Sequence record: OQ626344
Length of the DNA: 64,000 bases
From: Escherichia phage S127 BCL3
Strand: one strand, 5' to 3'
Positions 7,400 through 16,788 of the stretch are shown piece by piece. Numbering within the stretch: the first letter of the stretch is position 1; the number at the start of each line of letters is the position of its first letter. The position numbers and the translations under genes are program-made. The notes under the pieces are model-generated. The model was not told the DNA's origin, did no database searches, and was given only the letters and a program-made list of their open reading frames with translations.

Positions 7400-7442
7400 C
7401 AGGCACCTCCGGTGATTGTCTCCCCCCGTCGCCAGGTGCCTG
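7400..7442 (-). repeat. GC-rich conserved element, copy A (core GGGAGACAATCACCGG on minus strand)
   Basis: 16-mer core shared with 16630 and 16764; 9-bp stem CAGGCACCT/AGGTGCCTG around core. Confidence 0.65.
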
Positions 7443-7462
7443 CCGTGAAATAAGTATAACAA

Positions 7463-7490
7463 AAAACAGGACCATTACAAGCCCTGTTTT
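7463..7490 (-). terminator. rho-independent terminator (possibly bidirectional)
   Basis: 8-bp stem AAAACAGG/CCTGTTTT, 12-nt loop, U-rich tract after it on minus strand. Confidence 0.5.
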
Positions 7491-7504
7491 ATGGTTTATA
7501 AAGA

Positions 7505-7696
7505 TTATATTTTTTCGCCTATATAGTCCGGTCGGTTTTTCTCTGTCATACGCTTAAGCAATTCTTGCATGTTGCTTATGGCTTGTAGTGTATCCTCTTC
7601 AAGGGATGAATCGAGATAATCAGGATCATTCTTCACCTTGCAATGATTATGGTAACGTAGTACTGCCAGTACTTTTTTAACTTCTTCTGCTGTCAT
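7505..7696 (-). CDS. hypothetical protein
   Basis: 63-aa ORF; AGGTGG SD. Confidence 0.5.
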   Translation of the reverse strand: MTAEEVKKVLAVLRYHNHCKVKNDPDYLDSSLEEDTLQAISNMQELLKRMTEKNRPDYIGEKI

Positions 7697-7704
7697 TATT
7701 CCAC

Positions 7705-7839
7705 CTAAAACAATGAGTTAATATATAACATTAGATCGCTGACCACCAGGACAACACTGATCAGCACATACCTAACCATAAAGGGAAAGATCGCCAACAT
7801 TGCCACCACGATCCCCATGGTAATAATTATCTTTCTCAT
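7705..7839 (-). CDS. small hydrophobic peptide (44 aa), below track cutoff
   Basis: ATG right after stop of gene 7842..8126; hydrophobic; no own SD. Confidence 0.3.
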   Translation of the reverse strand: MRKIIITMGIVVAMLAIFPFMVRYVLISVVLVVSDLMLYINSLF

Positions 7840-7841
7840 GG

Positions 7842-8126
7842 TTAACGGTTCACGTAAGTTTTCCCGTTTACGGTTATCGGCAGATCCTCCAGGTCTGGAT
7901 CTTCTTTAAGGTCGCGAGCAAGTTCACCGCACCGGACGCCCTCGAATCCGTAGTACTCTGTAGTGCCGTCCTTAAAAGTTTTTGCGGCAAGGCATAGGCG
8001 ATAAGTAACCCCGATTTGATTGACGGCATGGATATCAGTTAGATCTACCTCTTTTGCCAACTCTTTAGCCATTACAGGCGCATTAAGTCCAACAACCAGG
8101 GCAACCACTGCGATCATCTTTTTCAT
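7842..8126 (-). CDS. secreted/periplasmic protein with signal peptide
   Basis: N-terminus MKKMIAVVALVVGLNAPVMA resembles Sec signal peptide; AAGAGGA SD. Confidence 0.6.
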   Translation of the reverse strand: MKKMIAVVALVVGLNAPVMAKELAKEVDLTDIHAVNQIGVTYRLCLAAKTFKDGTTEYYGFEGVRCGELARDLKEDPDLEDLPITVNGKTYVNR

Positions 8127-8217
8127 TGTGTCTATCCTCTTTCTGCTACGTTTAAGGCGGCAGTAACCGCCTGTTTATGCTTTGTTGGTTAATTTTCGGG
8201 TATCTGTATAAATTAAA

Positions 8218-8433
8218 CTATGCTGTACGCTCAACTATAACAACGGCTTGAGGGATCTCACCTTCAACCACTATCAAGGCTTTTTTCTGCGTGATAGATA
8301 TCTTTACCCGCTTCAGCGTGGCGGTAAAATCTTTCATTTCGTCACGTGGTGTTTTAGTGCAATACCAGATCTCAGGCTTGCCGATCTGCAAGTTGCGTAA
8401 AAATTCTGTTTTGCCTGTTTTGTTGGTGATCAT
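8218..8433 (-). CDS. hypothetical protein
   Basis: 71-aa ORF; AAGGTGG SD. Confidence 0.5.
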   Translation of the reverse strand: MITNKTGKTEFLRNLQIGKPEIWYCTKTPRDEMKDFTATLKRVKISITQKKALIVVEGEIPQAVVIVERTA

Positions 8434-8442
8434 TTGCCCACC

Positions 8443-8547
8443 TTATCCGATACCGTTGGAAGACAAGATCATATTAGCCATGGTTGCAATCAGGCCAATA
8501 CCCAGGGCAATAACCAGGATCATCGCATCAATTAATTTCTGTTTCAT
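8443..8547 (-). CDS. small hydrophobic peptide (34 aa), below track cutoff
   Basis: AAGAGGAAAAC SD then ATG; stop overlaps SD of next gene. Confidence 0.35.
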   Translation of the reverse strand: MKQKLIDAMILVIALGIGLIATMANMILSSNGIG

Positions 8548-8639
8548 CTTGTTTTCCTCTTCTTGCTCCAGGTGGTGGACCATTCCACCACCTTATGTAT
8601 TATGCTTTGTTAGATAGTGTTGTTTGTTGTCAAACTATT

Positions 8640-8819
8640 TTAACGATAGTCATCATATGCTTTATTAACCTGGCGAATATAACATTCAAAAGCTAGATCA
8701 ATAGACTTATACTCACGGATATACTCGCCATAGGAAACCACATACATTTCTATAGCTTCCTCATATGCCAGGAGAATAGAATCTAACCCTACAATCTCGG
8801 TCTTTGCAATAATAGCCAT
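8640..8819 (-). CDS. hypothetical protein (59 aa), below track cutoff
   Basis: AAAGAGGATAAAAATC SD then ATG. Confidence 0.45.
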   Translation of the reverse strand: MAIIAKTEIVGLDSILLAYEEAIEMYVVSYGEYIREYKSIDLAFECYIRQVNKAYDDYR

Positions 8820-8894
8820 GATTTTTATCCTCTTTGTGGTTGGTGGGGCTTGCCCCTTTGATTTATATACTACAGTCTTATACGGTCATGTCAA

Positions 8895-9128
8895 CTATTT
8901 TTCAAAAAATTTTTCTGCTGTGATATTCTTCCCGGTCGGATTAGCTACTTTTAAAATTCTATCATGCACCGGACGCCCAAAAGAATAAGATCCGTATACA
9001 GTAAACCAATAATCCCCGTTCGGTTGAACTGTTACCGCAGCGTACGGTGTCCCTCTTTCATTATCACCAATAAAGTGAGAAACATTGCCGTTAACGTTCG
9101 GTTTAGTGCTTTTAATTTGTTCAATCAT
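8895..9128 (-). CDS. hypothetical protein
   Basis: 77-aa ORF; AGAGGGG SD. Confidence 0.55.
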   Translation of the reverse strand: MIEQIKSTKPNVNGNVSHFIGDNERGTPYAAVTVQPNGDYWFTVYGSYSFGRPVHDRILKVANPTGKNITAEKFFEK

Positions 9129-15058: not shown

Positions 15059-15059
15059 C

Positions 15060-15464
15060 TTAGTAAGTTTTCAGTACTTTCCCGTCCAACCTGTCAAGCT
15101 GGATCTCGATAGCTGCAGAAAACCTATTGTACACCACGTCGCCCATGGAATCCAACCAGTCTATGACGTTATACACTTGCTCTTTGTTCTTGCAGGTCCG
15201 GATCCGTTTCATGATGTAAGCCGGATCAATATTGGTACTTTCGTTGGTGTTCCCCTGTACCTGATTTGCCGTATTAGTTACATCTTTAATGGCCTTTACC
15301 ACCACCTGGAAGGGCTTTAAGGTGCCTTTTGCGTTCATCTCACGCGCTTTTGCGGCGCGGTTGTTATAGGTTACACAACGGCGGCAAATGTTCACTAAGT
15401 GCATGTCAATAATTTTTTCATCGTTTGCCAGTTCGTTCATGATGCGGCGTACGTTCTTATTCAT
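15060..15464 (-). CDS. hypothetical protein
   Basis: 134-aa ORF; AAAGGAAAAAG SD; driven by unit P3. Confidence 0.55.
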   Translation of the reverse strand: MNKNVRRIMNELANDEKIIDMHLVNICRRCVTYNNRAAKAREMNAKGTLKPFQVVVKAIKDVTNTANQVQGNTNESTNIDPAYIMKRIRTCKNKEQVYNVIDWLDSMGDVVYNRFSAAIEIQLDRLDGKVLKTY

Positions 15465-15483
15465 GATCTTTTTCCTTTGTGTT

Positions 15484-15540
15484 GGCGGGAAACATTCCCG
15501 CCTTTTGTGATTAGTTTACTTGAATTTTGCAGCGTGTCAA
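15484..15540 (-). promoter_or_regulatory. sigma70-like promoter plus 5-prime UTR hairpin (unit P3)
   Basis: Minus strand TTGACA - 16 nt - TAAACT, then hairpin GGCGGGA-ATGTT-TCCCGCC. Confidence 0.55.
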
Positions 15541-15546
15541 CAATTT

Positions 15547-15945
15547 TTATTCGTGGGCGCATGTTACAATGTGCTTTTTATAGCCCAGGTGGTTAGCAAG
15601 TGCCGACAAAAACTCTTCTTCATAGATCCAGCCGTTGGCAGTGATCCCCATAGCATTTAATGCGCTCTCAAGTGCTGCATTAGCTTTATCGTAACCGTGA
15701 CCGCTCGCCTTCCCGCCAGTATAACCGTACTTATTGTTCTTGTTGTCGTGAATCCAAAAAACGCAGTATTGAGTGTTCCCGCTGGCGGCGGCATAATACC
15801 GGATCTCAGCTACTTCGTGCAAATTATTGTCATCGTCCAGGCCCACCAGATTATAAGCCTTGTAAAATCCACGATCACGGCGGCAGTTCTTGACATCAGA
15901 AAAAGAAAAGTCCGCATTATCAAAATTAAAGGTAGTGGTTTTCAT
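15547..15945 (-). CDS. hypothetical protein
   Basis: 132-aa ORF; AAGAGGATAAAATC SD. Confidence 0.55.
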   Translation of the reverse strand: MKTTTFNFDNADFSFSDVKNCRRDRGFYKAYNLVGLDDDNNLHEVAEIRYYAAASGNTQYCVFWIHDNKNNKYGYTGGKASGHGYDKANAALESALNAMGITANGWIYEEEFLSALANHLGYKKHIVTCAHE

Positions 15946-16009
15946 GATTTTATCCTCTTAGTGTCTTTTGTGCTTTTAGTGTATTTGGTGTCGGACTGTA
16001 TGTCAATAC

Positions 16010-16207
16010 TTATTTTTTATTAAACCAGTGGTTGATCTGGCCTTTTGTCAGGGCGCAACGATTAAGCTGTTGCCGGGTGTAGCTCTGACCGCGACGGAAT
16101 TTATAAAGGCCTTGCCCGTTGTTGATGGTTACGTCCACCTGGCAAATCATTTGATCGGTGACGGCCTGGCGAGTGTTGCGACGTACTTTAATTCCGTAGG
16201 CGTTCAT
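16010..16207 (-). CDS. small basic protein
   Basis: 65-aa ORF; GAGAGGATAAAAATC SD. Confidence 0.5.
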   Translation of the reverse strand: MNAYGIKVRRNTRQAVTDQMICQVDVTINNGQGLYKFRRGQSYTRQQLNRCALTKGQINHWFNKK

Positions 16208-16259
16208 GATTTTTATCCTCTCTGTTAATTAGTGTGGTGTTGTTCACCTTGCGAGGATA

Positions 16260-16287
16260 AGAATAACAGAACTATCCGAGCTGTCAA
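16260..16287 (-). promoter_or_regulatory. sigma70-like promoter for the leftward small-gene block
   Basis: Minus strand TTGACA - 16 nt - TATTCT. Confidence 0.45.
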
Positions 16288-16611
16288 CCATTAGTTAGAA
16301 TTATTTTTTGGGCAGAATTCTCCAGCCGTCGCCCCTGCCAGGTTAACCATCATTTTTTCGTACTCTTCTTTATGTTCCAACGCTCCCGCCATAGCCTTTT
16401 CAACCAGGGCGGTAGCCTCAGCGTCATTAATCGCTACATTTCCAGGGGGATCATATTACTGTACCTCCTCTTCAGTTGTTGCCTACCCTATAGCATAGCC
16501 CTGCCAGGCTGGCCCCGCCAGGTTGCAACGGTTAGCGCATCAGGTTAGAATTTTTTTGAAAAGTGTTGACAGCGGCCCCGCCAGGTGGCACAATATACCT
16601 ATCGAAAGGAC

Positions 16612-16650
16612 GGCAGGCACCGGTGACGGGGGAGACAACCACCGGGGATG
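16612..16650 (+). repeat. GC-rich conserved element, copy B (core GGGAGACAACCACCGG)
   Basis: Core 16630-16645 within CCGGTG/CACCGG stem; preceded by TTGACA at 16566. Confidence 0.65.
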
Positions 16651-16665
16651 GGCGCTGCATAAAAT

Positions 16666-16681
16666 GAGAACGGTTATCATT
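16666..16681. repeat. dyad motif GAGAACGGTTATCATT
   Basis: Near-palindrome AATGAGAAC-G-GTTATCATT; related copies at 4706, 4724, 16802. Confidence 0.55.
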
Positions 16682-16747
16682 ATCATTTAAAAATTTATGC
16701 AAAAAATCCTTGCTTTCTTTGTCCTGTGTGATACTATAATAACAAGC

Positions 16748-16788
16748 CGGGGCAACAGGGGCCGGGAGACAATCACCGGGGGTGCCCG
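16748..16788 (+). repeat. GC-rich conserved element, copy C (core GGGAGACAATCACCGG)
   Basis: Core 16764-16779; preceded by TATAAT at 16735. Confidence 0.65.

Follow-up and report, generated by a model that had tools for sequence, protein, structure and literature searches.

Origin transcript modules are known from phage T7, whose primary origin carries the tandem phi1.1A/B, from phage T4, where oriF and oriG combine a promoter with an unwinding element, and from ColE1 with its RNA II. HK022 put and lambda nut (boxB) are promoter-proximal RNA elements, of which put comprises two stem-loops acting in cis on RNA polymerase, and GACAA forms the loop of the P22 boxB. In PeSL cassettes, a terminator stem-loop is followed by an early promoter, and the stem-loop sequences differ between phage pairs (PMC4122927). 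The rV5-like phage PhiTE, a Vequintavirinae relative, carries a non-coding RNA (ncRNA) decoy, pseudo-ToxI (PMC3475682). Here, we analyzed a 64,000-nt stretch of Escherichia phage S127 BCL3 (OQ626344), referred to as the window throughout, and describe an element of approximately 55 nt that is present in three copies (A, B, and C) behind predicted promoters. It covers the early region of an E. coli myophage of the rV5/FV3 type (genus Vequintavirus) and is matched by more than 230 sequenced relatives.

The element is real, conserved, and undescribed, and we class it with the conserved promoter-proximal or putative non-coding RNA elements of phages. No description of it was found in the literature, nor of Vequintavirus transcriptomes, small RNAs (sRNAs), or origins. 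With Rfam 15, no gathering-level match was obtained in the window, riboswitches, ribozymes, and phage RNAs included, and scans of 16200-17200 and 7250-7550 at E<=10 returned sub-threshold chance matches alone, none of which spanned an element. The one closest to an element, at 7378-7413, overlapped copy C at its 3' edge and belonged to preQ1, with 14 bits where 39 are required. The orthologous gap of phage GAP31 gave no Rfam match either, and no similar DNA was found in E. coli genomes.

Three copies behind predicted promoters

The 16-mer GGGAGACAAYCACCGG matched the window without a single mismatch at 7409-7424 on the minus strand and at 16630-16645 and 16764-16779 on the plus strand. A fourth site was not found in the 64 kb, even with up to three mismatches allowed. 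Since chance would supply approximately 6e-5 exact matches to a 16-mer with one Y on both strands of 64 kb (own arithmetic), three copies are far beyond expectation, in agreement with an earlier note on this DNA that had pointed to a 16-nt core occurring three times in both orientations. The mean of 0.58 from a shuffle control refers to the search with up to three mismatches and is not the relevant null for the exact 16-mer. Both an nhmmer profile built from 31 instances and a covariance model recovered these three sites and no other in the window; a GC-rich island at 3871-3908, similar by eye, was detected by neither. The copies are as follows, with the scores of the covariance model:

16608..16663, plus strand: copy A, core GAGACAACCACCG at 16632-16644; contains the exact 16-mer; 23.0 bits; also found in relatives
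16742..16797, plus strand: copy B, core GAGACAATCACCG at 16766-16778; 76.3 bits; the copy kept across all genera
7391..7448, minus strand: copy C, core GAGACAATCACCG at 7422-7410; 30.7 bits

The shared DNA also leaves the translation footprints that the earlier note had described, TGTSGDCLP in the reading frame 7234..7557 and TGTPGDCLP in 16532..16816. The frames overlying A and B are spurious, and similar hypothetical proteins are annotated there in relatives. Most of the 120 matches to the 16-mer in IMG/VR fall within unrelated prophage coding sequence, so the 16-mer alone is not diagnostic. The real unit spans approximately 55 nt, and 31 aligned instances gave the extended consensus S-GAGACAA-H-CACCG-N4-TGC-N2-G. 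Among these, the GAGACAA and CACC columns are invariant, the next G is replaced by A in two (POP18 and CB7), TGC..G is almost invariant, and the N4 spacer alternates between GGGG, GGCC, GACC, AACC, CCCC, and GAGG. The strongest constraint lies on the sequence itself, as would suit a recognition surface on either RNA or DNA; the invariant letters and their fixed distance from the promoter are the most prominent features. Two other explanations of the conserved letters were discarded. For a short leader peptide starting from the GUG after GGAG, the start codon is unconserved (CUG in Gotham and KaOmega), and the four G-tracts of a G-quadruplex occur in B alone and are absent from PVP-SE1-type copies.

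In A, B, C, and approximately 30 other phage lineages, the core starts 23-37 nt past a sigma-70 -10 box on the same strand, and this holds for every instance inspected. The promoters referred to here are promoter-like sites predicted from the sequence, and those in the window are listed below:

16566..16594, plus strand: sigma-70-type promoter of copy A, TTGACA-17-CACAAT, TG-extended; kept in relatives
16523-16551, plus strand: second promoter-like site in tandem with the promoter of A, TTGCAA-17-TAGAAT
16710..16740, plus strand: sigma-70-type promoter of copy B, TTGCTT followed by TGnTACTAT/TATAAT at 16732-16740
7453..7490, minus strand: terminator and promoter of copy C; intrinsic terminator at 7490-7463, overlapped by TTGTAA at 7480, spacer of 16, and TG-TATACT at 7453
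7347..7375, minus strand: ordinary early promoter of gene 7292..7020, TTGACA-17-TAACAT; downstream of copy C

All promoter hexamers named in the earlier note exist; however, the TTGACA at 7375-7370 on the minus strand lies downstream of C and is thus not the promoter of this copy. In all other genera, copy B is preceded by an equivalent promoter of the form TTGCAA...TATATTAT. The layout found at C, with a terminator, an extended -10 box, and the element, recurs in L055, L209, L224, L175, L212, L321, and L337. A sigma-70 promoter-proximal pause element, in which A(-11) and T(-7) of a TATAAT-like hexamer are conserved, was considered for GACAAH and rejected: the sixth position is A, C, or T in 10, 3, and 18 of the 31 instances, respectively, so the critical T of a -10-like hexamer is unconserved.

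GCCAGG motifs near promoters, likewise reported before, are enriched as well, as CCYGCCAGG, which holds the Dcm site CCAGG, occurs seven times in the window vs. 0.57 expected. The sites lie at 7361, 9181, 11063, 16334, 16500, 16514, and 16577 and often lie in or beside the spacers of sigma-70-type promoters. Equivalent promoters in other genera carry GC-rich CCTGGGG or CCCGGCGGGG spacers.

Genome setting, relatives, and a candidate origin

The genes of the early region read on the minus strand. Copies A and B are located inside a 950-bp gene-free gap (16208-17154) and are oriented against the flanking genes. An alignment with phage Gotham puts the terminal repeat at approximately 4903-5361, which places C approximately 2.5 kb and A and B approximately 11.7 kb from the left genome end.

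The element was found at the equivalent non-coding gap in all sampled genera of the Vequintavirinae and in the Stephanstirmvirinae. The gap is shared by Salmonella phage PVP-SE1, Cronobacter phage GAP31, Klebsiella and Proteus Mydovirus, Certrevirus (PBES02, KaOmega, CB7, and POP18), Erwinia phage Hena1, and the Stephanstirmvirinae phages anhysbys and Mt1B1_P17. Orthologues of copy B are present in Seuna-, Mydo-, Certre-, and Henunavirus and in Phapecoctavirus, and orthologues of copy C in L055, L125, Gotham, L282, and L320. The earlier note had regarded a core that is absent or unconserved in close relatives as speaking against the element; the core is kept across two subfamilies and beyond. 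In all lineages that share the gap, the order is the same, namely promoter, B-type element, two to four palindromes, and iterons of the TCGAG(A/T)ACC type.

In genera other than Vequintavirus, another strongly conserved sequence, which starts with GCCACCCCACGGCGAAAAGGCGGGGC and has its own promoter, stands in the place of copy A. This second sequence is non-coding, promoter-driven, and approximately 90 nt long (GCCACCCCACGGCGAAAAGGCGGGGCTAACGTACCGGG...GGAAGGTGGATCGCCGGTAG), and it was found in Seuna-, Mydo-, Certre-, and Henunavirus and in Phapecoctavirus (L134 11830-11930, L135 11810-11910, L136 11890-11970, and approximately 1030-1130 in L137-L144). It is absent from the window, and no Rfam family matched it in the scanned gap of GAP31. 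In the Klebsiella-phage stretch L133 (K45PH128C2), tRNA genes for Lys, Ile, and Met are annotated over the orthologous region at 878-1573, with coordinates that are probably shifted; a tRNA identity was rejected, as ARAGORN detected none in L133 or in the window.

Pattern scans of IMG/VR and metagenomes were cleaned of chance matches (prophage coding sequence, a tmRNA gene, and many coding regions). They added C-type copies in Certrevirus, copies followed by iterons on contigs L165, L155/L160, and L216, the last of which carries NAD-salvage genes typical of the FelixO1/rV5 supergroup, and the 168-kb contig L241. An uncultivated lineage (L273, L314, L321, L337, and L301) carries three to four copies per approximately 12 kb. 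Every one of them stands behind a terminator and an extended -10 TATAAT, and several lead directly into a bidirectional terminator with a convergent gene on its other side; a stand-alone sRNA gene is laid out in this way. Neither this lineage nor the metagenomic contigs L165 and L212 have relatives among sequenced isolates.

Two further observations were made during these scans. TGTAAC / TGTAAA(GA) boxes stand between the element and the next promoter in L321, L337, L314, and L273, and also just upstream of the -35 box of the B promoter in Seuna- and Certrevirus (L135 and L137); they may be another shared protein site. In L250, L252, L257, and L263, which are low-GC contigs, the core GAGACAATCACCGGGG occurs by chance in an apparent tmRNA gene, called by eye from its 5' end (GGGGCUAAC...) and its tRNA-like 3' end, so short-pattern scans of large collections need a check of context.

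The repeated promoter-and-leader units recall the PeSL cassettes of T4-type phages (PMC4122927, PMC2839356), which likewise combine a terminator stem-loop with a sigma-70 early promoter between small early genes, occur in multiple copies, and serve as substrates for recombination and deletion. By this account, the element would be a promoter cassette spread by recombination, whose repeats persist by shuffling early genes and whose leader has no specific molecular function. The PeSL layout fits C as well as the copies in L175, L212, L321, and L337, and C and the metagenomic copies do stand in terminator-promoter cassettes between small early genes, for which T4-type phages provide the precedent (PMC4122927). 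It does not fit A and B, which have no preceding terminator. A natural recombinant bears on the same question. In phage AlexBoehm (Bas56 of the BASEL collection; L264 700-770), recombination between the A and B cores has removed 134 bp and left one hybrid copy, with the 5' arm of A and the 3' arm of B; metagenomic contig L268 resembles a similar A/B hybrid. The repeats therefore recombine, and one copy suffices for a viable phage. However, what is conserved here is the leader, which follows the promoter and has an invariant 13-nt core, whereas the stem-loop of a PeSL stands ahead of the promoter. In every genus, moreover, B occupies a single syntenic non-coding locus instead of being scattered in variable, hyperplastic regions. 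The invariance of the core across subfamilies and unrelated contigs implies that the sequence itself is under purifying selection, and we consider a mere cassette quite improbable.

Beside A and B lie repeats of two further kinds, one of which recurs near the genome end:

16663-16681, 16799-16817, and 16828-16846, no strand assigned: operator-like palindromes after A and B; kept after B in all genera
4587-4605 and 4703-4721 (also approximately 4722-4740), no strand assigned: operator-like palindromes of the family AATGAGAAT-N-ATTCTCATT near the genome end
16935..17115, no strand assigned: iteron-like direct repeats GAAAACGAAAAACAGATCGAGTACT, containing GATC

The palindrome family has five sites in the window vs. 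0.06 expected. Judged by their letters, either Fur or a phage repressor could bind the palindromes. Compared with the Fur-box consensus GATAATGATAATCATTATC, 16666-16684 matches at 16/19 and 16802-16820 at 15/19 positions, and a phage repressor is as good a candidate as Fur because AATGAGAAT-N-ATTCTCATT is a perfect palindrome of its own. Homologous repeats of the TCGAG(A/T)ACC type follow the element in EC152, Mydo, PBES02, POP18, L165, L155, and L216. The layout of an iteron origin is present, with the promoters at 16566 and 16710 reading towards the repeats at 16935-17115 in an order kept in at least eight lineages, and the repeat block looks like a candidate replication origin.

This arrangement resembles the origin modules of T7, T4, and ColE1 in that the tandem promoters of A and B would fire into non-coding protein-binding repeats and AT-rich DNA, the 5' region of the predicted transcript is G-rich, and the arrangement is kept across lineages. 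Unlike those modules, it uses host sigma-70 promoters, carries an invariant 13-nt leader motif without counterpart, and has extra copies away from the iterons, and the origin here is a candidate only.

Two neighboring regions deserve mention. Around the inferred genome terminus, 3573-5700 is a long stretch without convincing genes, in which the only reading frames are 4061..4408 on the minus strand and overlapping frames at 4808-5125; it holds C-rich/G-rich islands at 3871-3908, 4268-4321, 4422-4464, and 4553-4594 in addition to the operator palindromes. At 16290-16460 on the minus strand, a homologue of the 57-aa Gotham gene F10B_0201 has lost its start region by a 10-bp and a 1-bp deletion and shows a good ribosome-binding site without an in-frame ATG behind it; it may be a pseudogene or reflect a sequencing error in a C5 run.

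The predicted transcript and its fold

Our leading reading, held with about as much confidence as doubt, is that the element forms the 5' domain of early non-coding or leader RNAs that are recognized via an invariant loop. Among the candidates listed in the earlier note (sRNA, transcription-factor site, and RNA processing site), a small ncRNA is best supported by the position behind promoters, the sRNA-like units, the folding of the sense strand, and a G.U change, while a protein site on DNA remains the main rival.

In minimum free energy (MFE) folds, nearly all instances form a common outer helix, wholly different in sequence between lineages (GGCAGGCACC, AUAGCGGG, GGGAGUGG, and GGAAAGC), around the core. 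In copy C, the outer helix comprises 11 bp (GGCAGGCACCT/AGGTGCCTGTC), and the RNA has an MFE of -24.6 kcal/mol (z -4.0). The 5' arm of copy A, GGCAGGCACCGGTG, pairs with CACCGG and GCGCTGC, and an MFE of -20.1 kcal/mol (z -2.1) was obtained. In the AlexBoehm hybrid, the 5' arm GGCAGGC still pairs with GCCUGCC, and this pairing accounts for the repeated switch between GGGG and GGCC behind the core. The sense strand folds more stably than the antisense strand (mean z -0.85 vs. -0.43; Wilcoxon p = 0.005). In phita32, CCGGUG/CACCGG is changed to CUGGUG/CACUGG, which gives two G.U pairs on the sense strand and two A.C mismatches on the antisense strand.

An alignment of 67 sequences, fitted to the tested structure, showed pairing in 69.5% of cells vs. 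66.2% in shuffles and a covariation of 0.134 vs. 0.089, with 0/500 shuffles as high in either case; these statistics lean towards the tested structure because of that fitting and because the sequences are related. Slid controls paired at 36-52%, below the observed value, and the observed covariation likewise lay above that of every slid control. The outer helix was approximately 77% paired and had two-sided changes in 5/8 pairs. Overall, the outer helix has moderate support as an RNA fold and the inner helix none.

Several results, like the bias of the fitted alignment, weigh against our leading reading. The inner helix was only 58% paired, RNAalifold gave no consensus structure for 20 B-type sequences, column composition alone explained pairing in the B-type (MAFFT) alignment, and a candidate 5' hairpin of 4 bp occurred no more often than chance would give. 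The stability of most copies, B included (z approximately +0.4 to +0.55), is unremarkable. Of the short GC stems described before, those of the C-type and a few further copies are significantly stable hairpins, whereas that of B is not. No terminator was predicted after A, B, or C in the window. As for a role in replication, GC skew follows gene orientation without a switch at 16-17 kb, copy C and the multi-copy metagenomic instances do not adjoin iterons, and the suggested link derives from neighborhood alone.

With an invariant 13-nt sequence instead of covarying pairs as the strongest signal, a protein site at the DNA level remains a serious rival. The element would then be double-stranded DNA (dsDNA) with an asymmetric site of approximately 26 bp (GAGACAA-H-CACCG-N4-TGC-N2-G) at approximately +15 to +40 of selected promoters, and its binder either a host protein or a conserved phage protein of replication or transcription; the site could serve as a roadblock, as an operator, or for initiator loading by the iterons. 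The core and the iteron core TCGAG(A/T)ACC both contain GAG(N)AC, and both show the same optional one-base insertion, GAGACAA vs. GAGTACAA (EC152/Mydo) in the former and GAGACC vs. GAGTACC/GAGAACC in the latter; these variants, however, do not co-vary by lineage. A- and C-type copies have two CACCKG boxes approximately 22-24 bp apart, roughly two helical turns, and operators and iterons cluster right beside A and B. On the other hand, the motif is non-palindromic, and the partner protein is hypothetical. The differing flanks keep the complementarity between the 5' and 3' arms, which would be needless for a plain dsDNA site, folding favors sense over antisense with changes that preserve G.U pairs, and the multi-copy units of uncultivated phages, with their own promoter and terminator, fit a transcript better. 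Taken together, a DNA site appears possible to us, though on the doubtful side.

In an alternative at the RNA level, the nascent RNA would act in cis on RNA polymerase, as does HK022 put, and confer resistance to the many intrinsic terminators of the early region. The element lies directly downstream of promoters, near the 5' end of the predicted transcript, and cassettes in which it follows a terminator and a promoter are found repeatedly between genes bounded by terminators. Its retention in phages whose operators are unrelated suggests a partner supplied by the host, for instance RNA polymerase. The resemblance to put and boxB also extends to a short structured RNA, predicted here, near early promoters, to a conserved loop that might be read by a protein or RNA polymerase, and to the GACAA of the P22 boxB within the core. 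However, what the element shares with put in particular is the promoter-proximal position alone. Copies A and B are directed into non-coding DNA, beyond which their transcripts would be antisense to genes and read-through of no obvious use, and some metagenomic copies seem to end at the terminator that follows. We therefore regard a put-like action as very improbable. The identity of the element as a boxB was rejected, since the 5-bp stem that closes a GNRA-like pentaloop in boxB (GAAAA or GACAA in lambda/P22) is unconserved around the GACAA of the core; it forms in some T-variants alone, with a G.A mismatch, and fails in A (A x C), PBES02, and PVP-SE1.

Like pseudo-ToxI and other phage sRNAs, the repeats expand and contract by recombination, and a single-stranded 5' stretch could serve as a seed or decoy surface. 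In contrast to pseudo-ToxI, there is no similarity to the 36-nt ToxI repeat, and a search of both strands of the window revealed no target complementary to the core.

Further short likenesses, noted by eye, were discarded. The cores of the ZTP, guanidine-III, and NAD+-I riboswitches are unsupported by Rfam, and the repeats of the E. coli type I-E and I-F CRISPR systems were judged a coincidence. The same judgment applies to the 16S rRNA decoding-site stretch ACACCGCCC, which is seen in the anhysbys type alone, to the sarcin-ricin AGUA, seen in the EC152 type alone, to the T7 phi10 leader (GGGAGACCACAACGG), to the ColE1 RNA I terminator (ACAAACCACCGC), and to the T7 primase site TTGTC.

Proposed role and significance

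On the leading reading, that of an early RNA domain, host sigma-70 RNA polymerase would transcribe the element of approximately 55 nt as soon as infection begins. An imperfect hairpin would form at the 5' end of the nascent RNA, in which a lineage-specific outer helix would pair the first nucleotides of the transcript with the segment after ...TGC. This helix would enclose the invariant, largely unpaired GAGACAA-H-CA, with the CCG following on the 3' strand of the inner stem. The invariant stretch may then be the recognition surface for a conserved protein or RNA partner.

The tandem copies A and B would head plus-strand transcripts that are antisense to all flanking genes and run into the operators and the GATC-rich iteron block. 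As these transcripts would enter that block, the most economical role for A and B is an origin-linked one, in analogy to T7, T4, and ColE1: the element may mark or stabilize an origin-proximal transcript that acts as a transcriptional activator or primer of replication, and the palindromes would supply regulation. Copy C would mark the leader ahead of an ordinary early gene; leaders or sRNAs addressing the same partner would also account for the metagenomic copies.

A more specific proposal, which we consider unlikely, is that the GAGACAA-H-CACCG leader is the recognition module of an undescribed RNA-based mechanism shared by a large set of virulent enterobacterial phages and by uncultivated ones. 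It would act either as an origin RNA, captured by the replication machinery or nucleating an R-loop and thereby priming or licensing replication, or as a family of abundant early sRNAs, regulatory or decoys, whose target would be a conserved host factor.

Few therapeutic coliphages are isolated as often as Vequintavirinae and their relatives, yet we are aware of no experiments that have mapped the replication origins, early regulatory circuits, or non-coding RNAs of these phages. The element provides a sharply defined handle on this biology, with its invariant 13-nt core, its fixed distance from the promoter, and the neighboring operators and iterons, and AlexBoehm offers a natural minimal genotype with a single hybrid copy. 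If the element acts as RNA, it would add to the known phage RNA motifs a new family that Rfam lacks; should it mark an origin, the replication start of this phage group would become directly testable.

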